A stretch of DNA of 64,000 nucleotides. Origin: Deltaproteobacteria bacterium (GTDB taxonomy: Bacteria; Desulfobacterota; Binatia; UBA9968). The stretch is taken from assembly GCA_016874755.1 (NCBI GenBank), contig VGTH01000022.1:19421-83420 (forward strand), written 5' to 3'. The position numbers and the translations under genes were made by a program. The notes under the pieces were generated by a model. That model saw only the letters and a program-made list of their open reading frames with translations, did not search any database and was not told where the DNA came from. Positions 1 to 39,724 of the stretch are shown one piece after another (position 1 is the stretch's first letter; the number at the start of each line of letters is the position of its first letter).

Positions 1-605
1 CCGGTCTCATGCCGGCCGTCACCTGGCTGCACAAGGGCTACGGCCACCATGACTTCGATCCAATCTACGAAGCGGCGGAGAAGCTCGACATGCCGCTCAC
101 GATCCACGGCGCGCCCAGCCGCGGCATGGGCTTCGATTTCTTCAACAAGTTTCTCCACGTCCACACGCTGGAACATCCGTTCGCGATCTTGATTCAATTC
201 ACCCACATGGTTTTCGAAGGTGTCTTCGTGCGCTTTCCCAAACTGCGCGTGGCGTATCTCGAAGCCGGCTGCGGCTGGCTCCCCTACATGATGGACCGCA
301 TGGACGAAGAGATGGAGAAGCCCTACCGCGTTCAGGCGCCGCTGTTGAAACAAAAACCCAGCGAGCTGATCCGCAATGGCCAGATCTGGACCACCTGCGA
401 AGTCGAGGAGAAAGCGCTGCCGTCGGTGCTGAAACTATTCAATCCCAAATGCTTGATGTGGCCCTCGGACTATCCGCACGAGCGGCTGCCGGACATGTTC
501 AAGCGCGATATTCCGGAGTTTCTCGAACGGGACGACATCAGCGACGAAACTAAGAAAGCGATCCTGCACGACAACCCAGTGAACTTTTACCGGCTGAAGA
601 TTTAA
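1..605 (+). CDS. Amidohydrolase-2 (PF04909-like) family metal-dependent hydrolase, 5'-truncated by window edge
   Basis: Open to the window edge. Motifs HGAP...EAGCGWLPY...WPSDYPHE...DNPVNFY are typical of ACMSD/amidohydrolase-2. Paralogous to 43539-44606. Confidence 0.6.
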   Translation, partial: GLMPAVTWLHKGYGHHDFDPIYEAAEKLDMPLTIHGAPSRGMGFDFFNKFLHVHTLEHPFAILIQFTHMVFEGVFVRFPKLRVAYLEAGCGWLPYMMDRMDEEMEKPYRVQAPLLKQKPSELIRNGQIWTTCEVEEKALPSVLKLFNPKCLMWPSDYPHERLPDMFKRDIPEFLERDDISDETKKAILHDNPVNFYRLKI

Positions 606-610
606 GAAAG

Positions 611-681
611 TATCTCGCGCAGAGGCGCAGAGATCGCAGAGAAAAAATATTTTCCGAACTCAGCGCCTCGGCGCGAGATAT
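611..681. repeat. Intergenic hairpin repeat of the GCAGAG family (REP-like); stem begins with the shared 15-mer GTATCTCGCGCAGAG
   Basis: Arm gtatctcgcgcagaggcgcagagatcgcagag is paired with downstream ctcagcgcctcggcgcgagatat. The same 15-mer starts the hairpin at 16853. Confidence 0.6.
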
Positions 682-713
682 TCTTCTGAATTCTCCCCCA
701 CAGGAGGCTCATC

Positions 714-1472
714 ATGCGTTTGAAAGACAAAGTTGCCATCGTCACCGGCGGCGGCGTGGGCATCGGTAAAGCCTATGCCCACGGTCTCGCGAAAGAAGGT
801 GCGAAGGTTGTCGTCGCCGATATTCAAGACACCGAAGCGCAGAAGGTCGCCGCGGAAATCAAAGCCGCCGGCGGCGCAGCGATCGCCGTCGCGGTGGATG
901 TGACGTCGCGAGAAAAAACTCAAGCCATGGCGGCCGCCGCGCTCAAAGCCTACGGCCGCATCGATATTCTCGTCAACAACGCGGGGCTCTATTCCGCGCT
1001 CAAGAAGAAAGCCTTCATGGAAATCGACGGCGACGAGTGGGACCGCGTCATGGCGGTCAATGTCAAAGGACTTTGGCATTGCGTCAAAGCCGTCTATCCG
1101 TCGATGAAACAGCAGGGCAAAGGCAAGATCATCAATATTTCGTCGGGCACGACCCAAACCGGCACGCCGATGTTTTTGCACTACGTCTCGTCGAAGGGTG
1201 CGGTGCTCTCGTTTACCCGCGCCTTGGCGCGCGAGGTGGGCAGCGACAACATCTGCGTCAACTCGATCATGCCCGGCCTGACTATTTCGGGCCCCAACCA
1301 GGAAGGGGTCACCAGCCCCGAGCAGCTCGCCGACCGCAGAAAGCGGCGCGCCTTTCAGCGCGACCAAGTGCCGCAGGATCTCGTCGGCACGGTGATCTTT
1401 CTTGCTTCTGATGACAGCGACTTCATGACCGGCCAGTCGATCGTCGTCGACGGCGGCATGAACATGCATTGA
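714..1472 (+). CDS. SDR-family NAD(P)-dependent oxidoreductase (3-oxoacyl-ACP reductase-like)
   Basis: TGGGVGIGKA Rossmann motif, NNAG motif, and YVSSK catalytic Tyr/Lys. RBS aggagg 7 nt upstream of ATG. Confidence 0.85.
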   Translation: MRLKDKVAIVTGGGVGIGKAYAHGLAKEGAKVVVADIQDTEAQKVAAEIKAAGGAAIAVAVDVTSREKTQAMAAAALKAYGRIDILVNNAGLYSALKKKAFMEIDGDEWDRVMAVNVKGLWHCVKAVYPSMKQQGKGKIINISSGTTQTGTPMFLHYVSSKGAVLSFTRALAREVGSDNICVNSIMPGLTISGPNQEGVTSPEQLADRRKRRAFQRDQVPQDLVGTVIFLASDDSDFMTGQSIVVDGGMNMH

Positions 1473-1499
1473 GGCAACGGGATTAGAGGGTCGCGAGAC

Positions 1500-2747
1500 T
1501 TATTCAAAGACTATACTCGTAAACGTCACCGCCGAGCCGGTCTCCTGCGTGAAGGCTTGGCCGTAGTGCAGGTGATTGCCGCGCGTGTCGTCGAGCAGAT
1601 GAATGAGTGAGTAGAGCGGCGAGAAGCCGCAGATTTTGCGCTTGTCCTGATCTTTGGCGATCTCGTGAAAAAATCCCGGCGCGTCCAGGGCAGCTAAACG
1701 CTCGACCAGTTTGTGGTCTTCGTCTTCAACCCATTTGAGGAACGCTTCATCGACCGGTTCGTGATCGCCGAATTGCTTGCCCACATGGGCTAGGTCGACG
1801 CCGGCAACGAAACAGACTTGCCGGCCGTCGGATTCGGCAAGCCGGCGCAAAACGCTAAGGAACTTGCCGACATCGTTTTGGCTCTCCGGCAGGGTTTTGC
1901 TGATCATCGCTTCGTGAAACGACGACACCAAGATTGGCACGATCTTAAACGGCCGCTCCGGTTTGCCGGAGAGCTCGGCGCGTTTTTGCGCGATGTACTT
2001 CAAATAGAGCACTTGGAATTCGACCGAATGCTCGCCGCGGTGCAGATACTCGTCGACAAAAAAATCGCTGGCACATTGCTCGTGCAAGCGGTTGACAAAT
2101 TCTCGATCGGTCTCGACGACGCCCAGCGGGGTCTCAAAATCTTTCAGCGTTAAAATATACGGCATTTCGCCGCCGCAGTGCGAAGTCCCAAGGATAATGT
2201 AGAGATCCGCCCCTGCGCTTTCCGCCAAGCTCTTGTACGCCCAGGCATAGGCGGGCCCGCCGCGATGGAAATCGATGTGCGGCGCAACGATCGCTTTCGG
2301 CGTCGGCGCAGAGTTTTTGCCCGCCGGCATGCCCGGCCCTTTCGGCGATTGAAAGTAACCGTCGAGCTGGGCTCTGAGCCCACGCGCATCGTTCTTGTAG
2401 CAACCACCCACATGCGCGGCGGCGCGCGTCGGCTGCCGGCGAAACTCTAAGATCAACCCTTTTTGGAACGTCGCGAAGTTCTCACTCTGCAAATAGTGCT
2501 GCTGGTCGAGCATGTCGACGAACTTTTTCAGCTCGTCGCTCAGCAGCAATGTGCCAAACTGTTTGGCATAGGCCTCCTGAATATCGAGCAGCGAATGCTG
2601 GCCGTCGAAGTGAGAAAGAATGAAATAACCCACCGGCGAAAGACCGATGGGGGTGGCGAAGTTGGCGGGATCTTTAAGATAGATAAGGGTCTGCTCCCCC
2701 TCTTTTACCGGGAACGCATCGACATATCGCAGCAGCGGTTTGTCCAT
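1500..2747 (-). CDS. Memo-like / AmmeMemoRadiSam system protein B family enzyme with an N-terminal ~130-aa PqqD-like (RRE) extension
   Basis: C-terminal 270 aa carry APHIDFHRGG...ILGTSHCGG...VAGVDLAHVG...ICGFSP, which is Memo/LigB-superfamily-like. The N-terminus (LSPVGYFILSHFDGQHSLLDIQEAYAKQF...ELKKFVDMLDQQ) follows the PqqD pattern. The track start at 2759 is TTG; the first ATG is at 2747. Confidence 0.65.
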   Translation of the reverse strand: MDKPLLRYVDAFPVKEGEQTLIYLKDPANFATPIGLSPVGYFILSHFDGQHSLLDIQEAYAKQFGTLLLSDELKKFVDMLDQQHYLQSENFATFQKGLILEFRRQPTRAAAHVGGCYKNDARGLRAQLDGYFQSPKGPGMPAGKNSAPTPKAIVAPHIDFHRGGPAYAWAYKSLAESAGADLYIILGTSHCGGEMPYILTLKDFETPLGVVETDREFVNRLHEQCASDFFVDEYLHRGEHSVEFQVLYLKYIAQKRAELSGKPERPFKIVPILVSSFHEAMISKTLPESQNDVGKFLSVLRRLAESDGRQVCFVAGVDLAHVGKQFGDHEPVDEAFLKWVEDEDHKLVERLAALDAPGFFHEIAKDQDKRKICGFSPLYSLIHLLDDTRGNHLHYGQAFTQETGSAVTFTSIVFE

Positions 2748-2762
2748 GGGTCCGAACAAAAA

Positions 2763-3062
2763 TCAGACAATGCCTAATCTCTGCTTCGCCTCCTCGGCGA
2801 TCATGCTCGGATTCCACGGCGGGTCCCAGACCAGATCGACAGTGGCATCGCTCACCCCTTCGAGCGCCATGATTTTCTGTTTGGCGTCGTTGGCGATCAT
2901 CGTCCCCATGCCGCAGCCCGGCGCCGTCAGCGTCATCTTTACCGCCACCTGATCGTCGTTGACTTCGACGTCGTAGACCAAACCGAGGTCGACGATGTTG
3001 ACCGGAATCTCCGGGTCGTAGCAATCTTGCAGCGCTTCGTAAACCTGTTCTTTGGTGACCAT
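2763..3062 (-). CDS. DUF59/MIP18-family Fe-S cluster assembly protein (SufT-like)
   Basis: 99 aa with LTAPGCGMG cysteine motif. RBS agagga. Immediately downstream of mrp, separated from the Memo-like gene by 15 nt. Confidence 0.75.
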   Translation of the reverse strand: MVTKEQVYEALQDCYDPEIPVNIVDLGLVYDVEVNDDQVAVKMTLTAPGCGMGTMIANDAKQKIMALEGVSDATVDLVWDPPWNPSMIAEEAKQRLGIV

Positions 3063-3075
3063 GAGAGTTTTCCTC

Positions 3076-4176
3076 TTAGCTCGAGACGATTTTCAACCCT
3101 TGAACTCTCTGCGCGCGCTCGGAAGCGATCGACAGTTGGCCGGCCAACTTGGCCGCGATATCGAGAAAACTTTTGCTTACGGGTGATTTCGGATCTTGCA
3201 CGAGAATCGGCACGCCGCTGTCGCCGCCCTCGCGCAGCGCCGGTGTGATCGGAATTTCACCGAGATAAGGAATTTGAAATCGATCTGCTGCATTCTTGGC
3301 GCCGCCGCGGGAAAAAATATCGTGCTCCTTGCCGCAGCCGTCGCAGATGAAATAGCTCATGTTCTCAACGATGCCGAGGATCGGAATCATCACTTTGTCG
3401 AACATCGATTTCGCCCGCACGACATCGGCCAACGCGACGTTCTGCGGCGTCGCCACCAACAACGCGCCGCTGACTTTCAATTGCTGCGAAAAAGTAATCT
3501 GCACGTCGCCGGTGCCCGGCGGCATGTCGACGACCAGATAATCCAAGTCGCCCCAATGCACGTCGGCCATCAATTGATGCAGCGCTTTGCCCAACATTGG
3601 GCCGCGCCAGATCACCGCCTGATCGGGGTCGAGAAAAAAGCCGATGGACATGATCGGAATGCCGTGCGCCATGGTCGGCGCGATTTTCTGCGCGCCGGCG
3701 ACGTCGACCTTGGTGGGCTCGCCCTTCACGCCCATGATGATCGGCACCGAGGGGCCGTAAATGTCGGCATCGAGGAGGCCCGTCGCCGCGCCGTGCGCTT
3801 TGAGCGCGACCGCGAGATTGGCGGCCACCGTCGACTTGCCCACGCCGCCCTTGCCCGCAGCGACCAACACGACATTTTTCACCGACGGCAAGAGATCGGT
3901 CTGTCCGGCGCCAGCTTTGCTGCCACGCACCTGAGCGCCGAAGTTAATTTCCAGCCCGGTAATCCCCGCCACGCTGGCCAGGGCCATTTTACAGTCGGTT
4001 TCAATAGTTTCTCGGAGCGGACAGGCTGGCGTCGTCAGCTCCACGGTAAAGCTAACCCTGCCGCCGTTTAGGGCGAGTTGCTTCACCATGCCTAGGCTGA
4101 CAATGTCTCGGTGCAGTTCCGGATCTTGCACGCGGCTTAATGCTTGAAGAATTTGCTCCTGCGTTACAGCTTCCAC
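3076..4176 (-). CDS. apbC: Mrp/ApbC/NBP35-family Fe-S cluster carrier ATPase with N-terminal DUF59 domain
   Basis: Deviant Walker A GKGGVGKST and a CxxC (FICDGCG) motif. The N-terminal 90 aa are DUF59. GTG start with RBS aaagga. Confidence 0.9.
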   Translation of the reverse strand: MEAVTQEQILQALSRVQDPELHRDIVSLGMVKQLALNGGRVSFTVELTTPACPLRETIETDCKMALASVAGITGLEINFGAQVRGSKAGAGQTDLLPSVKNVVLVAAGKGGVGKSTVAANLAVALKAHGAATGLLDADIYGPSVPIIMGVKGEPTKVDVAGAQKIAPTMAHGIPIMSIGFFLDPDQAVIWRGPMLGKALHQLMADVHWGDLDYLVVDMPPGTGDVQITFSQQLKVSGALLVATPQNVALADVVRAKSMFDKVMIPILGIVENMSYFICDGCGKEHDIFSRGGAKNAADRFQIPYLGEIPITPALREGGDSGVPILVQDPKSPVSKSFLDIAAKLAGQLSIASERAQRVQGLKIVSS

Positions 4177-4372
4177 AAGGTTCCTTTCGCGAATGAAAAA
4201 ACTATAGACCTATAAGGTCTATCAGGTCAACGATTCTCCCCGGCCAAAGCGCAGCGCGCAGAGTTTTCATTGCATCTGCCGCTACTTACCTTGCCGCTCT
4301 CGGTTTGCTCTGATAAAATTGAGGTAACTTTTACACCCTTAACAACACTTGCAAATGCGTCAGGAGGTTTCC

Positions 4373-4711
4373 ATGCGAAACGCTGCAAAGAGAGTGGCTT
4401 TGGTATGTCTCATCGGTGCGGTGACAGGCTGCGCTGGCGGTTCGATTACTAAGCGTGAAGCCGGCGCCGGCATTGGCGCGCTCGGCGGCGCCGCAGCGGG
4501 AGGTGCCATCGGGTCGGCGGTAGGCCGCCCAGGAGTGGGGGCGGCGGTCGGGGGGCTATTGGGGTTGGGCGCCGGCGCGTTGATCGGCGACCAAATCCAG
4601 GGAACCGACAACCGACAGATCGACCAACAGCGTCAAATCGACAGCAATCAGGCGGAAATCGAGCGCCAGCGGCGCGAGCTGGAACGTCTGAGAAAACAGG
4701 GCGAATATTAG
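4373..4711 (+). CDS. Glycine-zipper (Rick_17kDa_Anti/YMGG-like) lipoprotein with Q/R-rich coiled-coil tail
   Basis: Lipobox ...AVTGC followed by AGGSITKREAGAGIGALGGAAAGGAIG glycine zipper. RBS aggagg. Paralogous to the N-terminus of the next gene. Confidence 0.6.
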   Translation: MRNAAKRVALVCLIGAVTGCAGGSITKREAGAGIGALGGAAAGGAIGSAVGRPGVGAAVGGLLGLGAGALIGDQIQGTDNRQIDQQRQIDSNQAEIERQRRELERLRKQGEY

Positions 4712-4811
4712 CATCCGGCACAAAAAATCTACTTTTTTTCCGAGTTAAACGTCTAATAGCAAAGCGCCGCCGCCGTGAGTTTCCCGTGGCGCGTGCCAAG
4801 AAGGAGTATCA

Positions 4812-8139: not shown

Positions 8140-8379
8140 TTGCAGCAGAAAAGGAGCGACGCCTTGGCGACAACCGTTGAAGCCCCCATGGTGGGCAAGG
8201 TTTTGAAAATCGAGAAGAACGTCGGCGACCATGTGGATGAAGACGATGTGGTGATTGTCATGGAAGCAATGAAAATGGAAATTCCCGTGGTGGCTCCTGC
8301 CGCCGGCACGGTTAAGGAAATCAAGGTGACCGCGGGCCAGGCTGTCGAAGCCGAACAAGTGCTCGCCGTTATCGAATAA
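8140..8379 (+). CDS. Biotin carboxyl carrier subunit of a Na+-translocating decarboxylase (MmdC/OadA-biotin-domain-like)
   Basis: EAMKMEI biotinyl-lysine motif in a 70-aa lipoyl/biotinyl fold. The real start may be the TTG at 8164 after RBS aaaaggag. Confidence 0.8.
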   Translation: MQQKRSDALATTVEAPMVGKVLKIEKNVGDHVDEDDVVIVMEAMKMEIPVVAPAAGTVKEIKVTAGQAVEAEQVLAVIE

Positions 8380-8435
8380 CTCGCCGCTCTGGCGCAAATA
8401 CCCTCTCACTCTATAGCGCTTTCCGAGGAACGCGG

Positions 8436-8588
8436 ATGAATCTAGATAATTGGACGTTTGGCTGGACCCTCGCCCTGATCGGCATGGGCGGCACCATGCT
8501 GGTTTTGTGGCTGATGAGCCTGATGATTTTATTGATCCGCAAAGCCTTCCCCTACAAGCCCGAAGACTCGGGCGCCAAGAAAGGTTAA
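8436..8588 (+). CDS. Small membrane subunit (OadG/MmdD-like) of Na+-translocating decarboxylase; absent from the ORF track because it is under 60 aa
   Basis: 50-aa ORF MNLDNWTFGWTLALIGMGGTMLVLWLMSLMILLIRKAFPYKPEDSGAKKG. It has a single TM helix and sits between the biotin carrier and the beta subunit. Confidence 0.45.
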   Translation: MNLDNWTFGWTLALIGMGGTMLVLWLMSLMILLIRKAFPYKPEDSGAKKG

Positions 8589-8597
8589 TCGGCTAGA

Positions 8598-9746
8598 ATG
8601 GAATCAGCCCTCGCTTATGGTCTACAAGGCCTGTTTCTCGGCGTCGTGAACATCACCTTGCCCAAGGTGATCATGATCTTAATCGGTTCCGGGCTGCTCT
8701 ATCTCGGCATTAAGAAAGGCTACGAGCCGTTGTTGCTCGTGCCCATTGGTTTTGGCGCCATTCTGGTCAACATTCCGCTGTCCGAGATGATGCACGACGG
8801 CGGTTTTCTGAGATTTTTCTACAACATCGGCGTCAGCACGGAAATCTTTCCGCTGCTGATTTTCCTTGGCATCGGCGCCATGACCGACTTTCAGCCGCTC
8901 CTGCAAAATCCGAAAATTATTCTGCTCGGCGCCGCCGGCCAGTTCGGGATTTTCCTAACTCTATTGCTCGCGCTGGCGCTCGGTTTCGACAAGCTCGACG
9001 CCGTCGCCGTCGCGGTCATCGGTGCCTGCGACGGCCCGACGGCGATTTACGTCAGCTCGAAGTTCGCGCCGCATATGCTGGGCGCCGTATCGGTCGCTGC
9101 GTACTCTTACATGTCGCTCGTGCCGCTCATCCAGCCGCCGATCATGCGCGCGCTGACCACCGAGAAAGAACGGCAGATCGTCATGGGCGCGGCCAAGCTC
9201 GAGCCGATCTCAAAGACAACCAAGATCGTTTTCCCCATCGCTGTCACCATATTTGCGTCGATCCTAGCGCCCAAAGGCGCGCCGTTGATCGGCACGGTTA
9301 TGCTTGGCAATTTGCTGCGCGAGTGCGGCGTGGTCGAGCGCTTGAAAAGTGCGTCGGAGAACGAGATCGCCAACATCGTTACCCTGCTCCTCGGTCTGTG
9401 CATCGGCGCGACCATGGAGGCCGACAAATTTCTCAAAACCCAAACCCTGCTCATCCTCGCTTTGGGCTTCATCGCCATCAGCCTCGACACCGCCGTCGGC
9501 GTGCTGTTCGGCAAAGCGATGTGTTTTTTCACCGGCGGCAAAGTCAACCCGCTGATTGGCGCCGCCGGCATCTCGGCGTTTCCGATGTCGGCTCGGGTCG
9601 TGCAGGCGGAAGGACAAAAGTACAATAAGAAGAGCTATCTGCTCATGCATGCCATGAGCGCCAACGCCGGCGGCCAAATCGGTTCGGTGATAGCCGCCGC
9701 GGTCATGCTCTCGGTGCTGCAGGGCATGGGCATTGTCGGCAAATAA
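8598..9746 (+). CDS. Na+-transporting decarboxylase beta subunit (OadB/MmdB/GcdB family)
   Basis: 382-aa polytopic membrane protein with the conserved decarboxylase-beta N-terminus (LGLFLG...IGSGLLYLGIKKGYEPLLLVPIGFG). Confidence 0.85.
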   Translation: MESALAYGLQGLFLGVVNITLPKVIMILIGSGLLYLGIKKGYEPLLLVPIGFGAILVNIPLSEMMHDGGFLRFFYNIGVSTEIFPLLIFLGIGAMTDFQPLLQNPKIILLGAAGQFGIFLTLLLALALGFDKLDAVAVAVIGACDGPTAIYVSSKFAPHMLGAVSVAAYSYMSLVPLIQPPIMRALTTEKERQIVMGAAKLEPISKTTKIVFPIAVTIFASILAPKGAPLIGTVMLGNLLRECGVVERLKSASENEIANIVTLLLGLCIGATMEADKFLKTQTLLILALGFIAISLDTAVGVLFGKAMCFFTGGKVNPLIGAAGISAFPMSARVVQAEGQKYNKKSYLLMHAMSANAGGQIGSVIAAAVMLSVLQGMGIVGK

Positions 9747-9768
9747 AAAATTTTCTATCAGGTGAGCC

Positions 9769-11322
<1,554 letters not shown>

Positions 11323-16939: not shown

Positions 16940-19093
16940 TTACTTCGCCAACGGATCCGGCCGCAACTGAAACTGCACCGCCATCGGTTTGGCGCCCTTG
17001 CCGCGCTCGTTTAACCACGGCGCGCGGTCGCCGCTGGCGCTCCACAGGCCGCGCCCCTTCCAGCCAGCGTTGGGATCGTCGATGCGGCCGTCGAAACCTT
17101 TGGCGTAGAAACCCAGCGGATAGGGCACGCGCAGGACCATCATCTTGCCGTCTTTAAAGGCGATCAAACCATCATTCAAGTTACCCGTCGACATCGGCAC
17201 GTCGTTGCCTAAGCCAAACGTATTGTGCTGGTCGACCCAGGTGTAGTAGCTCGACTCGGCGCTGTTATCGCCCAAGCCCTTGAAGCCCGGGCCCGGATAT
17301 TTGTGAAACGCCCAACCCTCCGGGCAGTGATCGCCCGTCGCCTTCGGACCGTTCAAAGGCCCTTTGCACTTGCGCCGATCGAAGCTCGCCAAGTGTCCGC
17401 TCGATAGCGACACCCAAATAACACCTTGCTTATCGATGTCGCCGCCACGCGGGCCGAAGCCGGGCAACGGCACGTTGTAGATTTCCGTCAGCGCCGTCTC
17501 CGAAGGATTACTGCCGGGAGCGACGCGCACCACCGCACCGGGAAAGCTGCGGAACGTGCCCCAGACCGAGCCATCCACCGGGTTCGGCATCACAGCGTAG
17601 AAGCCGGCGACGATGCGCTTATCCTTGGCCGGATCCACCGGCTGGTTGGGCTCGACGTATTCATCGCGCTTGCCGTTACCGTTGGTGTCGAGAATCATCG
17701 GCGTCCAGCCCTGCGAGCGCGCGATATCGCCGGTTTCATCGAACATCTTGGTATTGACCCAACCCACCACCTGGCCCGCACCGCTCGTCCACAGCGTATC
17801 GTTGGCGTCGTAGCCGAACTGCAAATGATGCGAGCCGAAGCAGGTATCGACGAAAGTATATTGGCCGGTCTTGGGATCGAGCATCGTGAGCTGGCGGTTG
17901 TTGCGCTCCACGGGAAAGACTTTTGCCGAAGGATGGCTCGAGCCCTTCTTGCAGAAATCAGGCGCCGGCGCGTCGCGAAAAGCAGCGGCAAACCACACCC
18001 GCCCTTTGCGGTCGAACATCGCGTTGTGATTATTCGACCGAGTGTCCCAGAGTTTTTCCGCGCCCCAGTAGGGCGAAGGCTGCAAGAGTTTATCGCTGGC
18101 TGCATGCCCCGGGCCGAGGGCTTCCGGGGTACCGGGCCGCACCGGCGTTGAGATATGGGTCGCCGTGTGTTTTTTGGGATCGAGCACCGGCATGAGGTCG
18201 GTGCTATACTCCGGTGAGCCGTAAAGCGGTCCGTAGGCGTTGACGGTCGGGTAGCGCCGGTCGGACGCGATCAGGTCGTGCAAATACTTTTTCTCGCTCG
18301 ACCAGTCCCAGGTCGTCACCACGATATTGCGCTCCACACCCTGGGGCCGTGCCGGCTTGCTGTCGGGCAGCTCACCTTTGGCGACCCGGTCAGTCCAGTC
18401 GGCGAAATATTTGATCGGCGCCCCGCCGAGATCCTTCATCAGTGTGTTGAACATCGACTCGCCGGATTGTCCCGACTGGATGCGGCGGAACCATGCCTCC
18501 TGGGAATTTTCAATATTAATCGGATGGGGAATGTCCTTCGGGAACGTGCGCGTCGAGAGTTGGCCCATCTGATGGCAGCCGACACAGCCATTGCTCTTCA
18601 TCGAATTGAGCCAGGCGTTTTGGGTTATCTTGACGGGGACCGCGCCCTTGCCGCCAAACTCGCTCGCTTCGGGGATTTTCAGCATCGAGTACCAATGGAT
18701 CGCCGGATAGTACTTCGCCGCCGCCGCGTCGTTGGGCGCTAGCACCGCGCGCAAGTTCAGGTGCCGCCCCGGCGCCGCTTTCACCTTCGGCGAATCGACC
18801 AGACCGTAGCCGCGCACCCAGATATCGTAGCTCGCCTTCGGCAAATCCGGCAGCACGTAGCGGCCTTGATCGTCGGTGACGACCATGCGCGCAAAACGCG
18901 TCGGCAGATCGTTGGTTTCGGCGATGACCCAAACCCCCGCCTCCGGTCCTTTAGCGCTCGTCACGACGCCGCCGATATCGTTGTTATCGAGAGCGACCGT
19001 TTGCTGACTGCTCAGGGGATGCGGCAAAAGAAAAACCGCCAGCGCCAACCCGGCAATCGTCAAGCATGAGAGCCACGCAATCCTTGATTTCAT
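16940..19093 (-). CDS. Large secreted protein with CarbopepD_reg-like N-terminal domain, one CxxCH heme-c motif and a probable beta-propeller region
   Basis: Signal peptide MKSRIAWLSCLTIAGLALAVF. CarbopepD_reg-like GVWVIAETNDLPTRFARMVVTDDQGRYVLPDLPKASYDIWV. A single CVGCH motif. About 717 aa. Confidence 0.55.
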   Translation of the reverse strand: MKSRIAWLSCLTIAGLALAVFLLPHPLSSQQTVALDNNDIGGVVTSAKGPEAGVWVIAETNDLPTRFARMVVTDDQGRYVLPDLPKASYDIWVRGYGLVDSPKVKAAPGRHLNLRAVLAPNDAAAAKYYPAIHWYSMLKIPEASEFGGKGAVPVKITQNAWLNSMKSNGCVGCHQMGQLSTRTFPKDIPHPINIENSQEAWFRRIQSGQSGESMFNTLMKDLGGAPIKYFADWTDRVAKGELPDSKPARPQGVERNIVVTTWDWSSEKKYLHDLIASDRRYPTVNAYGPLYGSPEYSTDLMPVLDPKKHTATHISTPVRPGTPEALGPGHAASDKLLQPSPYWGAEKLWDTRSNNHNAMFDRKGRVWFAAAFRDAPAPDFCKKGSSHPSAKVFPVERNNRQLTMLDPKTGQYTFVDTCFGSHHLQFGYDANDTLWTSGAGQVVGWVNTKMFDETGDIARSQGWTPMILDTNGNGKRDEYVEPNQPVDPAKDKRIVAGFYAVMPNPVDGSVWGTFRSFPGAVVRVAPGSNPSETALTEIYNVPLPGFGPRGGDIDKQGVIWVSLSSGHLASFDRRKCKGPLNGPKATGDHCPEGWAFHKYPGPGFKGLGDNSAESSYYTWVDQHNTFGLGNDVPMSTGNLNDGLIAFKDGKMMVLRVPYPLGFYAKGFDGRIDDPNAGWKGRGLWSASGDRAPWLNERGKGAKPMAVQFQLRPDPLAK

Positions 19094-19242
19094 ACCGACT
19101 CCTTTAACTCTACACGTGTTTACTGGAAGCGAGCGGAGATTAGCGAGAAAGAAGCATCTCGTCAATCGGCGGGAAGTAGATAGCGCCAGCCGATATCTTA
19201 TGCGGTTCGGTCTGCCCAGGCGGTGGAGCCTATTTGATTTTG

Positions 19243-22118: not shown

Positions 22119-24218
22119 ATGGATTCTTTAACCGACCCCGTTGCGGGCGAGAGCCTTTTCATCAACCGCGAGCTTTCGTGGTTGGAGTTCAATCGCCGGG
22201 TGCTCGAAGAGGCCAAAGACGACTCGGTGCCGCTGCTCGAGCGCATCAAGTTTCTCGCGATTTTTAGCTCCAACCTCGATGAGTTCTTCATGGTTCGCGT
22301 CGCTCGGCTGATGAGACGGGTCCACGACGGCGATCGGCGCCCCGGGCCCGACGGCCTCACCCCCGCCGAGACCCTCACGGCGATGGCGAAGTTGGCGCAC
22401 GAGTTGGTCGATGAGCAGCACCAGTGTTTTCTCGACACGATCTTGCCGCGGCTCACCTATGAAGGCATTTATCTTTGCCGTCCCAAAGAAATGACCGCCG
22501 AACAGGGGCGTTTTCTCGAGGATTATTTTCTCGGCACGCTCTACCCGATTGTCACGCCGTTGGCGATCGACCCGGGCCATCCGTTCCCTTACCTGGCCAA
22601 TCGCTCGCTCTGTCTGGTGGTCTCGCTGCGCGCGGCGATCGCCTCGCGCCTACCCCACACCGATTTGTCCATCGTCCATATTCCCACCCACGTCGCGCCG
22701 CGCTTTATTGCGCTGCCAACCGTTGAGGGCCAACACGCCTTCGTTTTGTTGGAGGATGTGCTGCGCCATTATTTGCCGCGGCTCTATCAGGGCTTTGAAA
22801 TACTTTCCTGCCACGCGATCCGCGTCACCCGCGACGCCGATTTCGGCCTGACGCGCCGGCGCGACGAAGATTTGATGATGCTCATCGAAAAGGGCATTCG
22901 CAAGCGGCGCATGGGCGATGCGGTGCGCTTGCAATACGATCGCGACATGCCGATGGCCATCGTCAACCAGCTGGTCGACGAGTTGGACCTCAGCCCGGCA
23001 AGCCTCTACCCCGGCGAAGGGTTCACCGCGTTCACCGACCTGCTCCAGCTCTACAACGCGCTCAACATTCCGCGTCTGCGCGACCGGCCGCAGCCGCCGC
23101 TGCCAGTGCCGTCCTTCGAACACGCCGCCGATCTATGGAGCGCGATTCGAGCGCGCGACGTGCTGGTGTTTCACCCCTATCAGTCGTTCGACACCGTGAC
23201 CCGCTTTGTCGACGAGGCGGCCAGCGATCCCAAGGTCCTGGCGATCAAGATGACGCTTTATCGCGTCAGTCCGACTTCGCCGATTGCGCCGGCGCTGCGG
23301 CGCGCCGCCGAGGCGGGCAAAGAAGTTTCGGTGTTGGTGGAATTGCAAGCGCGCTTCGATGAGGAAGCCAACATTACCTGGGCACGCGCCCTGGAAGACG
23401 TCGGCGCCCACGTGGTTTATGGCATGGTCGGCTACAAGACTCACTGCAAGATCTGTCTCGTGGTGCGCCAGGAAGCCGACGGCATACGGCGCTACTGTCA
23501 TCTCGCCACCGGCAACTACAACGTGCGCACCGCCGGAGTGTACAGCGATCTCGGCCTGTTCACTTGCCGTGAGAGCTTCGCCCAGGATCTTACCGAGCTG
23601 TTTAACTTACTGACCGGCTACACCCGGCCGCAAAAATTCAACCACATCTTGCTTGCACCGCTGGGCCTGCGCGAGCATTTCATCAATTGCATTCGCGGCG
23701 AAGCCGACCATGCGCGCGCCGGCCGGCCGGCGCGCATCATCGCCAAGGTGAACAGCCTGATCGACCCGGCGATTATCGACGAGCTCTACCGCGCCAGCCA
23801 GGCGGGCGTGCAGATCGACCTGATCGTGCGCGGCATGTGCAGCCTGCGCCCGCGGCTGGTGGGAGTGTCGGAGCATATCGAAGTCGTCTCGATCATCGAC
23901 CGCTATCTCGAGCACGCCCGGGTTTTCTATTTTCACGACGACAACGATCCGAAGTATTGGCTCGCCTCAGCAGACTGGATGGAGCGTAATTTCGATCGCC
24001 GTTTGGAGATCGCCTTTCCCGTGCTCGACCTGCAGCATCAGGCAAGGTTAAAAGAGATTCTCGAAGTGCAGCTGAGCGATTGCCTCAAGAGCTGGCGTCT
24101 GCAGCCCGACGGTACGTGGCGCCGCTCGCCGCCCTGCGGCACGAGGCTGGTTCGTTCTCAGGAAAAACTTTACGAGCTCACCCGCAGCGCCGCCAACGGC
24201 TCGGTCACGCCGTCTTGA
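22119..24218 (+). CDS. ppk: Polyphosphate kinase 1
   Basis: N-terminal FINRELSWLEFNRRVLEEA...FLAIFSSNLDEFFMVRVA and two PLD-like C-terminal domains. 699 aa. Confidence 0.95.
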   Translation: MDSLTDPVAGESLFINRELSWLEFNRRVLEEAKDDSVPLLERIKFLAIFSSNLDEFFMVRVARLMRRVHDGDRRPGPDGLTPAETLTAMAKLAHELVDEQHQCFLDTILPRLTYEGIYLCRPKEMTAEQGRFLEDYFLGTLYPIVTPLAIDPGHPFPYLANRSLCLVVSLRAAIASRLPHTDLSIVHIPTHVAPRFIALPTVEGQHAFVLLEDVLRHYLPRLYQGFEILSCHAIRVTRDADFGLTRRRDEDLMMLIEKGIRKRRMGDAVRLQYDRDMPMAIVNQLVDELDLSPASLYPGEGFTAFTDLLQLYNALNIPRLRDRPQPPLPVPSFEHAADLWSAIRARDVLVFHPYQSFDTVTRFVDEAASDPKVLAIKMTLYRVSPTSPIAPALRRAAEAGKEVSVLVELQARFDEEANITWARALEDVGAHVVYGMVGYKTHCKICLVVRQEADGIRRYCHLATGNYNVRTAGVYSDLGLFTCRESFAQDLTELFNLLTGYTRPQKFNHILLAPLGLREHFINCIRGEADHARAGRPARIIAKVNSLIDPAIIDELYRASQAGVQIDLIVRGMCSLRPRLVGVSEHIEVVSIIDRYLEHARVFYFHDDNDPKYWLASADWMERNFDRRLEIAFPVLDLQHQARLKEILEVQLSDCLKSWRLQPDGTWRRSPPCGTRLVRSQEKLYELTRSAANGSVTPS

Positions 24219-24260
24219 GCAAATAGTTCCCACCCGGGGTTGGTATAGGTAAAAAGCTTT

Positions 24261-25805
24261 ATGCTCGAACATTTCGCCGTCATCGACGTGGGCAGCAACG
24301 CGCTGCGCTTTCAGTTAGCGAGTGTGCCGCAGCCCAAGCGCTATCGGGTTCTCGAACAAGACCGATTGCCCGTGCGCCTGGGCTACCAGGTCTTTCAAAC
24401 CGGCCAGCTCGACAGCCGCGCGGCGGAGCAAGCGCTCACGGCCCTCGCGAAATTCAAAGCCACCGCAGACCGTTACCGAGTCAAAGCGCTGCGTGCCGTC
24501 GGCACCAGCGCGTTGCGCGAAGCCAGCGACGCCAAAGCTTTTACCGACCGGGTGAGAAAACTCGGCGTCCACCTTGAAGTGATCTCGGAAGCCGAAGAGG
24601 CGCGGCTGATCTCGCTCGGCATCATGAGCGGCTTACAGTTTCATTTGCCGCTCGGACTATTTGTCGACATCGGCGGCGGCAGCGTTGAGATGGCGGTGGC
24701 CAACGCCAGCAGCAATTATTGTTTGTTCAGCTTGCCGCTCGGCGCCGTGCGCATAACCGAGCGTTTTTTGCAGGAAGATCCGCCGCGGCGCAAAGGCATC
24801 AAACATCTGCGCTACCACGTCGAAGAGACGCTGCAGGACGTCGTCAAGCGCATCCGCAAAGAAAAGTTCACGATGGCCTTCGGCAGCGGCGGCACTTTGA
24901 CCACCTTGGCCGAGACCGACGCGCGCCTGGCCGGCGACAGCAAGATCGGCTCGCTGGCGGTGCTGCGCCGGCCGCGCTTAAAGACCTTGATCGAAATCTT
25001 AATGCAGCAGCCGGCCGCCGAGCGCGCCAGGTTAATCAGCGGCGATCCGAAGCGCGCCGACATCATCGTCGCCGGCGCTTTAGTCCTGCATGAGATCATG
25101 GTTCAGGCGGAGCTCGATTATCTCTTCGTCTCCAAGCGCGGCCTGCGCGACGGCGTCATGGTCGATCTGCTGCGCAAGAAATACGGCGAGAGCGCGCCCT
25201 GGCAGCAGGAAAGCGAGCGCGCTCAATCGGTGGAGCAGGTGTTTCAGAAATACGACGGCGGCGCCGTCCACTCGGCCCACGTCAGCCAACTCGCGCTCAG
25301 TCTATTTTATCAGCTGCAGCCGCTCCATAAGCTCGGCGAAAAAGATGCCGGCATCCTTCACGCCGCCGCGATGCTGCATGACATCGGCCACTTCATCACC
25401 CAGAAAAAGCATCACAAGCACTCTTACTATCTGATCAAAAGCTCCGGCCTCGAATCCTTCAACAAGCTGGAGCTCGAGCTGGTGGCCAACATCGCCCGCT
25501 ATCATCGCAAAGCCCACCCGAGCCCCAAGCACTTGGGCTTTAGCCAGCTATCGCCGGACAACCAGGACGTGGTGCGCAAATTGAGCGCAGTCCTGCGCGT
25601 CGCCGACGCGCTCGACTTCAAGCGCGCCCAAGCGGTGAAGTCGGTGGCCTGCGCCTACCACGGCGGCAAAGTGATCGACATCGCCTGCAGCGCCGCGGAA
25701 AATGTCAGCGATGAAATTCATTGGGCTTTGCAGAAAGGCAAGCTGATCGAAGAAGTTTTCGACGTCAAGCTATCGTTGAACCGCGCCAAACCACGCAGTT
25801 TGTAA
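24261..25805 (+). CDS. ppx: Exopolyphosphatase / guanosine pentaphosphate phosphohydrolase (Ppx/GppA) with C-terminal HD domain
   Basis: N-terminus AVIDVGSNALRF, an actin-like ATPase fold, and HD-domain motifs (HDIGHFI). Confidence 0.9.
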   Translation: MLEHFAVIDVGSNALRFQLASVPQPKRYRVLEQDRLPVRLGYQVFQTGQLDSRAAEQALTALAKFKATADRYRVKALRAVGTSALREASDAKAFTDRVRKLGVHLEVISEAEEARLISLGIMSGLQFHLPLGLFVDIGGGSVEMAVANASSNYCLFSLPLGAVRITERFLQEDPPRRKGIKHLRYHVEETLQDVVKRIRKEKFTMAFGSGGTLTTLAETDARLAGDSKIGSLAVLRRPRLKTLIEILMQQPAAERARLISGDPKRADIIVAGALVLHEIMVQAELDYLFVSKRGLRDGVMVDLLRKKYGESAPWQQESERAQSVEQVFQKYDGGAVHSAHVSQLALSLFYQLQPLHKLGEKDAGILHAAAMLHDIGHFITQKKHHKHSYYLIKSSGLESFNKLELELVANIARYHRKAHPSPKHLGFSQLSPDNQDVVRKLSAVLRVADALDFKRAQAVKSVACAYHGGKVIDIACSAAENVSDEIHWALQKGKLIEEVFDVKLSLNRAKPRSL

Positions 25806-25878
25806 GCAACGCTAACGGAGGGGCTCACCGTTCATGGACTATTGGCGCAACGTCAGCTGAGAGTTACGCTATTGGCAG

Positions 25879-26397
25879 ATGAACTTGTTTTTTCTGCGCC
25901 ACGGCAGCGCCATCGAGCACGGCGATCCGCGCGTCGAGAGCGACACGGAGCGCTTCCTCACGCCCAAAGGGATCAAGCGCCTGCGCCAAGCGGCGCGCGG
26001 CATGCGCGCGCTCGGTCTGTCCTTCGACGCCATTCTGACGAGCCCGGCCGTGCGCGCGCGCCAGACCGCACAGATCGTCGCGGTCGCGCTCAAGATCGCG
26101 GCCGAGCCACGGGAAATGATGGACTTGGCACCGGAGAGCACGGTGGAGCATCTGATCTTTGGTTTGAGCCGGCTGCCGGCGCAAGACAATTTGCTGCTCG
26201 TCGGCCATGAACCGCTGTTGACGCAAGCCTGTTCATTCTTATTGGCGCTTGAAAGAGATCAGAGCCTGAACCTCACGCTCAAAAAGGCGGGCCTATGCCA
26301 CCTCGAAGTCGATCACCTTCCGCCCTCCGAACCGGCAACGCTGCATTTTTGGCTGACGCCAAAACAGCTGCGCCAACTGGGCGAGACAAAAAAGTAA
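25879..26397 (+). CDS. sixA: Phosphohistidine phosphatase SixA (histidine-phosphatase superfamily)
   Basis: LRHGSA...RFLTPKG, the RHG catalytic motif. 172 aa. Confidence 0.7.
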   Translation: MNLFFLRHGSAIEHGDPRVESDTERFLTPKGIKRLRQAARGMRALGLSFDAILTSPAVRARQTAQIVAVALKIAAEPREMMDLAPESTVEHLIFGLSRLPAQDNLLLVGHEPLLTQACSFLLALERDQSLNLTLKKAGLCHLEVDHLPPSEPATLHFWLTPKQLRQLGETKK

Positions 26398-27299
26398 CCC
26401 GGCGCAAGCCCGACACAAAGCCAGCGCGCGCAGAGACCGACGCCCTCGGCAAGTTGGCGCACAAGCGGCTCGGCGATTTCGCCGCCCTGTTCGCTCAAGC
26501 GATGATTGCCGACGATCCGAAAACTGTCCACGACCTGCGCGTTGCCAGCCGGCGCCTGCAGCAACTGTTGCGCGCTCTGCACTCTGTCAAGAACAAGAAA
26601 CCGGCGAAAAAGGCCGGCGATTTTTTGCGCGCGCTGCGCCAGGCCCTTGGGCCGCTGCGCAACCTGGACGTGATGGCAGAAATGGCGGCAGCCCGCGCCC
26701 AAGCTGGCCACAGCGCGGCGACCCGCGGCACTTGGCTGGGAATTGCGTCGGCCATTGAGAAAGAGCGCGCCGAGGAAAACGCGCGCGCCCGCGAAGCGAT
26801 GAAGGATTTCGATTTGACCGGCTTTCTCGACCGCATGACGCGCACGCTGCACAGTCGGTCGGCCCAGGACTCGGATGCGAAAGACTTGCAAGAGACTACC
26901 GAGCGCCGTTTCCAGTCATGGAGCGATGCGTTGAGCCAGGTCGTTACGGAGCCCACAGTGAAACGCCTGCACGCCTTGCGCATCGCCGGCAAGCGGCTGC
27001 GCTACTCCATCGAGCTGCGCGCCGCAGTGAGCGACGGCACGTTAAAACCGCTGGCGCAATCGCTGGCCAAGCTGCAGGACAACCTCGGCGCCTGGCACGA
27101 CGTGCACACGCTGATGCAGTACGTCGACGCCTATCTCAATCAGAAAGAACTCCGCGCCGAACGTGCCGGCGAAAGCCGCGCACTCCTTTCTGAGGTGGAG
27201 CGCGAGCAAAAACGCGGTCAAACCCAGGCCGACGAAGCGATCGCCGCAGCCCAGTCGCTGCGCAACAGTTGGCCGATCAAGTCCGACCCTGCTGCGTAG
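26349..27299 (+). CDS. CHAD-domain protein (polyphosphate-granule-associated); start codon uncertain
   Basis: HDLRVASRRLQQLLRAL and a second H..R.A.KRLRY repeat are characteristic of CHAD. The ORF overlaps the sixA 3' end, and the true start is probably a TTG at 26349 or downstream. Confidence 0.65.
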   Translation: MADAKTAAPTGRDKKVTRRKPDTKPARAETDALGKLAHKRLGDFAALFAQAMIADDPKTVHDLRVASRRLQQLLRALHSVKNKKPAKKAGDFLRALRQALGPLRNLDVMAEMAAARAQAGHSAATRGTWLGIASAIEKERAEENARAREAMKDFDLTGFLDRMTRTLHSRSAQDSDAKDLQETTERRFQSWSDALSQVVTEPTVKRLHALRIAGKRLRYSIELRAAVSDGTLKPLAQSLAKLQDNLGAWHDVHTLMQYVDAYLNQKELRAERAGESRALLSEVEREQKRGQTQADEAIAAAQSLRNSWPIKSDPAA

Positions 27300-27644
27300 G
27301 ATGGGTTGAGGGTAGCGATACCCATCGTCTCAACACTGTGGGTATCGGCGAAACGCCTCAATCCACCCTACGCTCAATCAAAAGCCTCCGCGGGTCTCCC
27401 CCGCAAGCTCTTCATTATATTGATCCAGAACAAATTTATCCGGCAGTTCACCGAAGCTTCACGCGCCGTTAACAAATCTTCTTTGCCTTCGCGTCGAAAA
27501 AGTAAAACTGACTTTCACAAAGCAGCCCTTCAAGGAGGTGAAGAACAGCTTCAAGTAGAGATCGGTAGTTCATCAACGATTCATGTGGGCGAAACACAGT
27601 TGTAACAAAGCAAACCTATTTTTTGACAAGGAGGAAATAACCAG

Positions 27645-28631
27645 ATGAAGAATACAATTTTAGCGTTTGGGTTGGCCGCCGGCTTAGGGTTCAGCTCCTA
27701 CGCGCGGGCGCAGATTGTTCAAGTCGACGGATCGAGCACGGTGTCTCCGGTCACGGAAGCGGTGGCGGAAGAATTTCAGAAAGCCAAGAAGGGCAAGGTG
27801 AAAGTCACCGTCGGCATCGCCGGCACCGGCGGCGGCTTCAAAAAATTCTGCCGCGGCGAAACCGACGTCAGCAACGCTTCGCGGCCGATCTTGAAACAGG
27901 AAATCGCAGCCTGCAAAGGCAGCGGCGTTGAGTTCATCGAGCTGCCGGTGGCCTATGACGCGCTTACTATTATCGTCAACCCGAAAAACGACTGGGTTAA
28001 ATCACTGACAGTGGCTGACCTCAAGAAGATGTGGGAACCGGGCGCTCAAGGGAAAGTGACCAACTGGAATCAGGTCCGTTCTGAATGGCCGAATGCGCCG
28101 CTCAAGCTTTTCGGTCCTGGCGCCGATTCCGGCACCTTTGACTATTTCACCGAAGCGATCGTCGGCAAGGCCAAATCGAGCCGCGGCGACTTCACCGCCA
28201 GCGAAGACGACAACGTGCTGGTGCAAGGCGTCGCCAACGACCGCAATGCGCTCGGCTACTTTGGTTTCGCCTACTACGTCGAAAACCAAAAGAAACTCAA
28301 AGGCGTTGCCATCGACGGCGGCAAGGGGCCCGTAGCGCCTTCCGCAAAAGCGGTCGAGGACGGCAGCTACCAGCCGCTCTCCCGACCCATCTTCATCTAC
28401 GTCAGCAAAAAGGCCATGGACAGCAAACCGGAAGTGAGGGAGTTCGTTGAGTTCTCCCTCAAAGAAGCCCCCAAGCTCGTGCCGCAGGTCAAGTATGTTG
28501 CCCTTCCGGCTAAAGCCTACAGCATCGGCATGGACCATCTGAAAAAGAATAAGACCGGCACCGTGTTTGACGGCACCGCCGAGATCGGCGTCAAGATCGA
28601 AGATCTCCTGAAGCGCGAAGCCAGACTCTAA
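27645..28631 (+). CDS. pstS: Phosphate ABC transporter substrate-binding protein PstS
   Basis: Signal peptide, then DGSSTVSPV...AGTGGG PstS family motifs. RBS aaggagg. Confidence 0.85.
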
Positions 28632-34745: not shown

Positions 34746-34827
34746 ACGCTGCCAGCCCCTACGCCTTTAGTGCGATTGAATCTCAATGCCGGCGATTCTA
34801 TATTGCCAGTCCACGCGTGCACACGTC

Positions 34828-36732: not shown

Positions 36733-37884
36733 CTACAACCCCAACCATCGGGCAATAATATTGCGCTGTATCTCCGAGGTGCCCGAGTAGAGCGTGCTGC
36801 CGATGGCGTCGCGCAGCGCCCGTTCCATTTCGTATTCCACCATGTAGCCATTGCCGCCGTGAATCTGCACGGTGCCTAAAGCGGTTTGCACGAGGGATTC
36901 GCTGACAAACAGCTTGGCCATCGCCGCGTCGAGGGAAACCGTTTTGGTTTTATCCAAGAGCGAAGCGGCTTTGTAGACCAACAGGCGCGCCGCTTCGAGC
37001 TGCACTTTCATATCGGCGATGCGATGGGAAATCGCCTGATACTTGGCGATGGTCTGACCGAACTGTTTGCGTGACTTCGCGAAGGAGATGCTCTGCTCCA
37101 TCAGCCGCTGCGTCGTGCCGACGTGGCTGGCAAATAGACAAACCCTCTCCCAATCCATCGCGTGGGTAAAAATCGCCGTGCCGGCGCCGAGTCCGCCGAG
37201 GATCGCCTCCGGCCCGACCCTGACGTCGTCAAACACCAGCGCGCCCAGCGGCGCCGTGCGCAGGCCCATTTTCTCGAACGTCTGGGTGCACTGGAAACCG
37301 GGCGCGCCCTTTTCGACCAGAAAAGCGCTGATGCCGCCGTAGTAGCCCTTTCCCGGATTGGTGACGGCAAAGACGATGACAATGTCGGCGACCGGCGCGT
37401 TGGAGATAAAAGTCTTGGTGCCTTTGATGCGGTAGCCGCCGTTGCCGTCGGGCTCGGCTTTGGTTCGCATGGCAAATGCGTCCGAGCCGGACTCCGCTTC
37501 GGTCATGGCGTGGACACCAATCAACTTGCCATTGCAAAGATCGGCGAGATAGCGTTTTTTCTGTTCGGCGTTGCCGAACTGCCAGATCGGAATAACGCAG
37601 GAGAGCAGATGCGCGCAGATGGAAAAGACCAGGCCGCTGTCGCGGCAGCCATGGCCCAGCGCTTCGAGCGCGATCGCCGTCGTCAGTGGATCCAAGCCGC
37701 TGCCGCCGTCCTCCTCGGGCACCGGCAAACCTTGCAAGCGCATTTCTCCGGCTTTGAGCCAAAGCTCGCGCGCAAACACATGATCGCGATCGCGCTCGAG
37801 ATTGTCGCGGTTAAGCTCTTTGGCAGCGAACCTGTCGATGGTCTCGCTTAAGATTTGCTGTTCTTCTGAAAGGGAGAAATCCAT
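36733..37884 (-). CDS. Acyl-CoA-dehydrogenase-family flavoenzyme
   Basis: Full ACAD fold, 383 aa (ESGSDA...; GTSEIQRNIIARWLGL C-terminus). The usual YEG catalytic-Glu position reads YSG. RBS aaggag. Confidence 0.9.
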   Translation of the reverse strand: MDFSLSEEQQILSETIDRFAAKELNRDNLERDRDHVFARELWLKAGEMRLQGLPVPEEDGGSGLDPLTTAIALEALGHGCRDSGLVFSICAHLLSCVIPIWQFGNAEQKKRYLADLCNGKLIGVHAMTEAESGSDAFAMRTKAEPDGNGGYRIKGTKTFISNAPVADIVIVFAVTNPGKGYYGGISAFLVEKGAPGFQCTQTFEKMGLRTAPLGALVFDDVRVGPEAILGGLGAGTAIFTHAMDWERVCLFASHVGTTQRLMEQSISFAKSRKQFGQTIAKYQAISHRIADMKVQLEAARLLVYKAASLLDKTKTVSLDAAMAKLFVSESLVQTALGTVQIHGGNGYMVEYEMERALRDAIGSTLYSGTSEIQRNIIARWLGL

Positions 37885-39443: not shown

Positions 39444-39454
39444 GACGCTCCACC

Positions 39455-39712: not shown

Positions 39713-39724
39713 TGGGGGCTCCTT

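Follow-up and report, generated by a model that had tools for sequence, protein, structure and literature searches.

A putative stand-alone metalloenzyme joining a PqqD-type recognition fold to a Memo domain, from an apparently widespread family in metagenome-assembled genomes

In a 64,000-nucleotide stretch of a Deltaproteobacteria bacterium genome (Binatia; contig VGTH01000022.1, forward-strand positions 19,421 to 83,420; here called the window), we identified a minus-strand gene at 1500..2747 (415 aa and a stop codon; NCBI MBM4262629.1, where it is annotated as "AmmeMemoRadiSam system protein B") whose product joins an N-terminal domain resembling the recognition element of peptides that are made on ribosomes and modified after translation (RiPPs), i.e., the RiPP recognition element (RRE), to a C-terminal Memo domain. 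We consider the protein to be a stand-alone, cytoplasmic, two-domain metalloenzyme of the Memo_RRE type, and, with a peptide- or protein-directed mechanism included, we put the probability of this reading at roughly 45%; the architecture itself and its stand-alone status, not coupled to iron-sulfur (Fe-S) carriers, we regard as very likely. In the proposed mechanism, the RRE-like domain would capture an extended segment within a peptide or protein whose gene lies elsewhere in the genome and present it to the Memo metal center, which would carry out a metal-dependent, probably oxidative, modification of that segment.

The C-terminal Memo domain (1503..2432, minus strand; residues 106 to 415) had been proposed in an earlier note on this DNA, and the proposal proved right. 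Its match to Pfam Memo (PF01875), whose cutoff is 27 bits, scored 141.3 bits (E = 4.3e-41) over residues 110 to 412, spanning positions 2 to 268 of the 269-position profile, and the same profile was matched by all 73 of the 73 relatives (32 to 67% identity). The full-length AlphaFold2 (AF2) model, built with 64 homologues, had a predicted local distance difference test (pLDDT) of 90.7 and a predicted template modeling score (pTM) of 0.89, and its best Foldseek matches in the PDB were human MEMO1 structures (3bcz and 7kq8, E = 1e-15, TMt 0.77), with iron- and copper-bound structures among the MEMO1 matches. The next Foldseek matches, LigB-type extradiol dioxygenases, stood at superfamily distance (E = 1e-7 and weaker, TM of about 0.5). 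Pfam LigB (PF02900) gave no hidden Markov model (HMM) match in the window protein and weak matches (E = 0.002) in 2 of the 73 relatives. We rejected an identity as a LigB-type extradiol dioxygenase because a LigB HMM match was lacking and the likeness of fold was at superfamily level only.

MEMO1 was also the only protein found by a phmmer search of PDB sequences (E = 3e-9), and in this alignment its residues H49, H81, D189, H192, and C244 (numbers derived from chain indices with an offset of 3; the metal-site role of C244 is named in the title of PDB entry 7m8h) align with H157 (codon at 2277-2279), H190 (2178-2180), D318 (1794-1796), H321 (1785-1787), and C373 (1629-1631) of the window protein, all on the minus strand. 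The motifs listed in the note were all present, i.e., APHIDFHRGG at residue 155, GTSHCG at 187, DLAHVG at 318, and CGFSP at 373, together with its N-terminal strings at 36 and 72. H157, H190, and a further histidine, H240 (codon at 2028-2030, minus strand), were invariant across the 73 relatives, and D318, H321, and C373 were at least 90% conserved. In solved structures of MEMO1, a mononuclear His/His/Asp/His/Cys site binds Fe or Cu. Because all five of these residues are kept and are conserved across the relatives, the Memo domain looks functional, not vestigial, and its retention of the complete MEMO1 mononuclear metal site makes catalytic or redox activity most likely.

The N-terminal extension, which had been put at about 130 aa, comes to about 105 aa in the AF2 model. 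It consists of an RRE-like fold over residues 1 to 88 (2484..2747, minus strand; pLDDT 88 to 91), supported by the AF2 models, Foldseek, and weak PqqD HMM matches, and a linker segment over residues 89 to 105 (2433..2483, minus strand), of which 89 to 104 are modeled as a helix with a pLDDT of about 90. The same order of secondary structures, βββ-ααα (β10-16, β19-25, β34-36, α38-44, α53-64, and α70-82), appeared in the full-length model and in a model of the N-domain only (pLDDT 87.6), these elements having a pLDDT of 85 to 90 in both, and it is the arrangement by which an RRE is defined in PMC12710340. When the N-domain was searched with Foldseek, each of the 30 top-ranked PDB entries proved to carry an RRE or RRE-like domain. 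They include TbiB1 with bound lasso leader peptide (prob 1.0, TMt 0.65), which was also matched in the search with the full-length model, TruD (prob 0.99), TglI, and ThcOx, as well as the carbamoyltransferases GdmN and NovN and the protein-lysine methyltransferases PKMT1/2 and Rv2067c. The domain of the last group was picked out by both the sequence profile (5doo, E = 0.24) and Foldseek (8hkr, 5dnk, and 5dpl), and these whole-protein-modifying enzymes may thus carry a PqqD-like module.

At the sequence level, the NCBIfam PqqD-type models TIGR03859 (PqqD), ScmD, and ApyI each gave a weak match to the stretch that is also matched by Pfam PqqD (PF05402), and three independent HMMs falling on one stretch would favor an RRE. 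An hhalign comparison of the family with three PqqDs, two taken from PDB alignments and one checked against PDB PqqDs (E = 2e-8), aligned β3-α1-α2 in the correct register ("DGxxS/TxxxI"), with P = 7e-4 and a probability of 26%, which is weak. The family consensus, PKLRP..EAFPV...LI.LRDP...V....FI...FDGxHSxxDIQ.A..RxFG.LL......LDE..LLD., in which PKLRP, LRDP, FDGxHSxxDIQ, and LD are the conserved motifs, parallels PqqD over the whole length of the N-domain. The domain is acidic (mean net charge -4.4, n = 73 members) and so is unlikely to bind DNA; we rejected a DNA-binding winged helix for this reason. Taken from sequence pattern and models together, the N-domain is predicted to be a divergent PqqD-type RRE fold.

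The fusion itself has recently been cataloged. In an update of RRE-Finder, Bregman et al. (mSystems, November 2025; PMC12710340), who searched with Foldseek for RREs of divergent sequence, report fusions of an RRE with a Memo-like domain (PF01875), call the fusion "unprecedented in RiPPs," and list a "Memo_RRE" model (RREFam044; 72% true positives, cutoff of 20 bits) in their Table S1, giving no substrate, context, or function for it; RRE-DUF59 fusions are mentioned as well. From the matching architecture, we infer that the window protein belongs to this family. Full-text literature searches returned no other paper linking Memo with RREs or RiPPs. The suggestion in the earlier note that the activity is uncharacterized still stands for the whole family, but the architecture is already on record.

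The family appears to be large, to span many phyla, and to occur, so far, in metagenome-assembled genomes (MAGs) only. The closest 120 database proteins were all 402 to 419 aa long, and the few with a named source were mostly from Binatia MAGs. A profile built from the N-domain alone and run on 1.84 billion cluster representatives gave 1084 matches at E ≤ 1e-3 and 435 at E ≤ 1e-10, the latter counted as clusters at 50% identity, and among the matches listed, nearly all full-length ones were 400 to 430 aa with the N-domain at residues ~1 to 105, i.e., the same fusion. Matches shorter than 340 aa were mostly contig-end fragments or frameshifted reads and included no clear case of a discrete stand-alone RRE; eleven of them end within or at the N-domain and are indistinguishable from fragments. 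In one match of 986 aa (P0173), ~850 unrelated residues come after the RRE-like domain and the first ~140 residues of the fusion; this protein is probably an assembly chimera or a frameshift, although it could be a different architecture.

A scan of GTDB species genomes gave at least 596 Memo relatives, and the best 80 of these were taken as the loci for gene-context analysis. All 80 lie in MAGs, from groups that include Binatia, Methylomirabilota/Rokubacteria, Sumerlaeota, Poribacteria, Latescibacterota, Syntrophales, Planctomycetota, Acidobacteriota, Verrucomicrobiota, Spirochaetaceae, Nitrospinota, and Tectomicrobia, among others. In 79 of them, essentially the whole protein was matched from residues 1 to 4 onward, the exception being truncated (L028). 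Among close relatives, the mean identity was 62% for the N-domain and 75% for the Memo domain.

In the window, the fusion gene follows two genes for Fe-S proteins on the same strand, and the earlier note had read the three as an operon in which the fusion is coupled to Fe-S carriers. The upstream neighbor, at 2763..3062 (minus strand), encodes a 99-aa DUF59/FeS_assembly_P protein that is SufT-like, under equivalog cutoffs. The gene before it, at 3076..4176 (minus strand), encodes a 366-aa Mrp/ApbC-type Fe-S carrier ATPase with an N-terminal DUF59 domain and a Pfam NUBPL/ParA domain (E = 3.5e-99), which scored 336 bits with NCBIfam ApbC, slightly below the 348-bit cutoff. The two genes, separated by 13 nt, form a unit, and 15 nt separate the DUF59 gene from the fusion. 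A sigma-70-like match, TTGACC-18-TATAGT, lies upstream of mrp at 4201..4230 (minus strand) and is, by consensus match only, a possible promoter of the operon. The fusion is probably cotranscribed with both genes in the source organism.

As to translation, the DUF59 gene has a clear ribosome-binding site (AAGAGGA) and the fusion gene a weak GGA alone. The ATG that starts the 415-aa reading frame in the window open reading frame (ORF) analysis is backed by the gene callers in public assemblies and by the N-termini of orthologues; an in-frame TTG at 2759 is an alternative start that would give 419 aa. A simple terminator scan found 19 terminator-like sites in window positions 600-4800 against 5.5 ± 2.5 expected from shuffles; they fall mostly within coding sequence and on both strands, and the excess may be an effect of composition.

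A dedicated operon, in which the RRE-Memo protein is loaded or serviced by Mrp/ApbC and the SufT-like DUF59 protein, or does this for them, would account for the shared strand, the short gaps, and the one promoter-like site, and it gains something from the RRE-DUF59 fusions mentioned in the RRE-Finder paper (PMC12710340). When the window DUF59 and Mrp proteins were searched by tblastn within ±10 kb of the related loci, the gene order was kept, directly upstream of the fusion, in 17 of the 23 informative loci at 60% identity or more, all in Binatia, but neither gene was found in any of the 56 loci at 38 to 48% identity. Even in the close relatives, the distance between the DUF59 gene and the fusion in linked loci varied from about 5 to about 490 nt; in one locus (L018), the pair was intact but 8 kb from the fusion, and in five (L017, L020, L022, L023, and L026), tblastn found no Mrp-DUF59 pair. 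The conserved Memo residues, moreover, make up a mononuclear His/Asp/Cys site and not a Cys motif of the kind that binds clusters. Because none of the distant loci carry mrp or DUF59 nearby, the linkage is synteny of one Binatia subclade and not a conserved functional association; the local order and the 15-nt spacing noted earlier are real, but the coupling is not borne out, and we consider it highly improbable. Under the stand-alone reading, the adjacent mrp-DUF59 genes would probably be cotranscribed without being functional partners.

No other neighbor takes the place of these genes. Unbiased clustering of neighbor ORFs found nothing broadly common to the distant loci, and among the two nearest neighbors on each side of the fusion in the 56 distant loci (~105 proteins), no Pfam family occurred more than six times. 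The most frequent were the M20 peptidase (6) and Rieske (5) families, followed by Lon, P-type ATPase, luciferase-like, DctP, and SSF (3 each), all of which are clade specific. Within ±8 kb, the commonest family was an ABC exporter, in 11 of the 56 distant loci, which we rejected as a partner since its distance and strand vary, i.e., it is nonspecific; RmuC, a TrmA-like methyltransferase, a HemN-like protein, and TPP enzymes were also seen at this range.

Two clade-level arrangements were observed. An M20 peptidase lies 3 to 29 nt upstream on the same strand in six Methylomirabilota/Rokubacteria loci (L057, L061, L062, L067, L072, and L079), and a ~170-aa DUF2946/PCYCGC-like protein lies directly downstream in five (L038, L059, L062, L063, and L071), overlapping the fusion by ~45 nt in four of them; L062 carries both. 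Neither was accepted as a general partner since both are clade specific, but the arrangement in Methylomirabilota/Rokubacteria could represent a local operon, possibly of relevance to metals.

The database name implies another explanation, namely that the protein is an ordinary protein B of the AmmeMemoRadiSam system, its partners being encoded elsewhere and its N-terminal extension incidental. The Memo domain does pass the corresponding NCBIfam model (TIGR04336, 101 bits against a cutoff of 26), and the database names of the protein and its homologues agree. However, the extension is conserved over the 435 or more clusters and folds confidently, and the partner genes were not found in the window or in 79 of the 80 related loci. 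A scan for the AMMECR1 motif LRGCIG in 86 loci and the whole window (1.34 Mb) gave a single match, in L082, and none in the window. As the earlier note had observed, the parts of the window that were annotated showed no radical S-adenosylmethionine (SAM) enzyme of the AmmeMemoRadiSam type, the sole radical SAM found there being of MiaB/RimO type (55914-57266), and within the neighbor sampling, the radical SAM enzymes seen at related loci were HemN or MiaB type.

The one AMMECR1-bearing locus, from a Deltaproteobacteria MAG (Go_SlDig_bin_103; L082:8414-11224), is informative, as a canonical Memo gene (279 aa, 229 bits), AMMECR1, and the RRE-Memo gene (140 bits) stand there in tandem on one strand, between FtsY and RadC. 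This coexistence with a canonical Memo protein, together with the lower Memo HMM score, shows that the fusion is a paralogue distinct from the B protein of the canonical system, and we regard the ordinary-protein-B explanation as quite improbable; both it and the Fe-S coupling are poorly supported. The tandem may also hint at a functional link between the two Memo types.

That hint belongs to the main alternative, in which the RRE-like domain docks a partner protein, such as AMMECR1, a radical SAM, or another enzyme, in the way PqqD docks onto PqqE, or has a regulatory function, and the Memo domain acts on a small molecule; in a variant, the RRE-like fold has a structural role. It would agree with the lack of a conserved precursor or RiPP-type context, with the position of the L082 fusion directly after a canonical Memo gene and AMMECR1 on the same strand, and with the placement of the Memo part in TIGR04336. 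GdmN, NovN, ThcOx, PKMT1/2, and Rv2067c likewise offer examples of enzymes that have an RRE-like fold but for which leader-peptide binding is not known. On the other hand, AMMECR1 accompanies the fusion in only 1 of the 80 related loci and not in the window, the nearby radical SAM enzymes are of HemN or MiaB type, and the N-domain keeps a PqqD-like sequence pattern over its full length. We regard docking of this kind as possible but rather unlikely. The substrate of Memo-AMMECR1 systems, according to what Burroughs and colleagues reportedly proposed in 2019, is a nucleotide base or an isoprenoid lipid.

Several observations weigh against a peptide- or protein-directed metalloenzyme, and we set them out together. 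For the N-domain, the score with PF05402 was 18.9 bits (E = 0.0019, residues 34 to 85), short of the gathering score of 23.4, such that the PqqD/RRE assignment in the earlier note is upheld by the βββ-ααα fold and its RRE matches, but not by the Pfam threshold. The same model reached E ≤ 0.01 in only 6 of the 73 relatives, and the alignment profile of the N-domain found nothing significant among PDB sequences, PKMT2 (5doo) being the best at E = 0.24. The Foldseek E-values were 0.05 to 0.9, as expected for an 85-residue domain. The carbamoyltransferases GdmN and NovN act on small molecules, and thus an RRE-like fold alone is not proof of peptide binding. For the context, clustering of ORFs of 20 to 110 aa within ±3 kb, the kind of search for precursor peptides that had been suggested, revealed no precursor-like peptide common to the distant loci, and no conserved RiPP-type neighborhood was seen at the related loci. 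Peptide binding, therefore, has no support from gene context, and peptide-directed modification remains an inference. For the Memo domain, no enzymatic activity has, to our knowledge, been established for any Memo protein. A review (PMC7694686) is cited to the same effect.

We nevertheless favor the stand-alone RRE-Memo metalloenzyme. In its broadest form, the family would be a widespread housekeeping-type post-translational modification (PTM) enzyme of uncultured soil and sediment phyla, recruiting a peptide or a protein tail that is encoded elsewhere and oxidatively modified by the Memo center, and at this level of detail the proposal is doubtful. The range over which Memo is conserved runs from archaea to humans, and MEMO1 has links to disease. 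That a peptide-recognition fold is permanently joined to a Memo domain here is nature's clearest hint of Memo proteins, at least some of them, acting on peptides or proteins. Should the PTM reading be true, the Memo family would gain its first defined enzymatic reaction and its first substrate class, human MEMO1 would gain a lead, and an RRE-dependent pathway without a gene cluster would be known. To the published catalog, our analysis adds the size and phylum spread of the family, the strict conservation of the metal site, and the lack of a conserved gene cluster; because of the last, approaching the substrate through an adjacent precursor will not work. The architecture is, therefore, a real lead on Memo function, which, with no colocated substrate, is harder to test than a typical RiPP enzyme. 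As guides to what the protein does, its name in the databases ("AmmeMemoRadiSam system protein B") and the apparent Fe-S operon both mislead.

Every annotated gene in the rest of the window is of a housekeeping kind, e.g., those encoding an amidohydrolase, SDR, Gly-zipper/OmpA lipoproteins, PlsY, sensor kinases, an oxaloacetate-decarboxylase Na+ pump, PPK/PPX, ArgRS, RNase J, and FtsK. The pump is encoded by a plus-strand cluster at 8140-11322 (biotin carrier, gamma, beta, and carboxyltransferase), and a second plus-strand cluster, at 22119-28631, serves phosphate (polyphosphate kinase, Ppx/GppA, histidine phosphatase, and a PstS-like binding protein). At 32907-36666 (plus strand) are tandem paralogues of 612 and 626 aa with AA_permease_2 fused to a C-terminal Usp domain; an exact look-up of the protein encoded at 32907-34745 gave no record. 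A four-gene run at 36733-42247 (minus strand) has the look of a cassette for acylation or lipid modification; it comprises genes for an acyl-CoA dehydrogenase and an AMP-binding adenylating enzyme, an 85-aa ORF without a Pfam match that by its position is possibly a carrier protein, and a gene for an 840-aa membrane protein that has, at its C-terminus, a weak GDSL-like domain. Two minus-strand genes encode predicted secreted or outer-membrane proteins, one of 484 aa without a Pfam match (60994-62448) and the other of 741 aa with a sub-threshold CarboxypepD_reg match only (16940-19165).

Among known systems, the nearest is Memo_RRE (RREFam044) itself, which shares with the window protein the fusion of a Memo-like PF01875 domain to a predicted RRE fold and a sequence too divergent for PF05402; it was published without gene context, and the context analyzed here showed no conservation. 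Human MEMO1 (3bcz, 7kq8, and 7l5c) shares the fold and all five metal-site residues, but at 22 to 25% identity, and the window protein differs in being bacterial, in having the N-terminal RRE-like domain and linker helix, and in the size of its Memo domain (about 305 aa against about 270 in MEMO1). With protein B of the AmmeMemoRadiSam system (TIGR04336), it has in common a Memo domain that passes the model cutoff and the database name, but not the genes for the AMMECR1-like A protein and the radical SAM, which were not found locally or at related loci, except for AMMECR1 in L082.

On the N-terminal side, PqqD (5sxy/3g2b) and the lasso-peptide protein TbiB1 (5v1v) share the βββ-ααα winged-helix topology, with the motifs P-x-L-R, LxxP[ED], and xDGxxS/TxxxI in register. 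Unlike PqqD and lasso RREs, the window domain is fused, not discrete, and scores below threshold, and no precursor, radical SAM, cyclase, or protease lies nearby. PKMT1/2 of Rickettsia and Rv2067c of M. tuberculosis, the top Foldseek matches to the N-domain (8hkr, prob 0.99), have an unrelated catalytic domain, a methyltransferase, and the module is placed differently in the protein; they nonetheless set a precedent for a PqqD-like module within an enzyme that modifies whole proteins.

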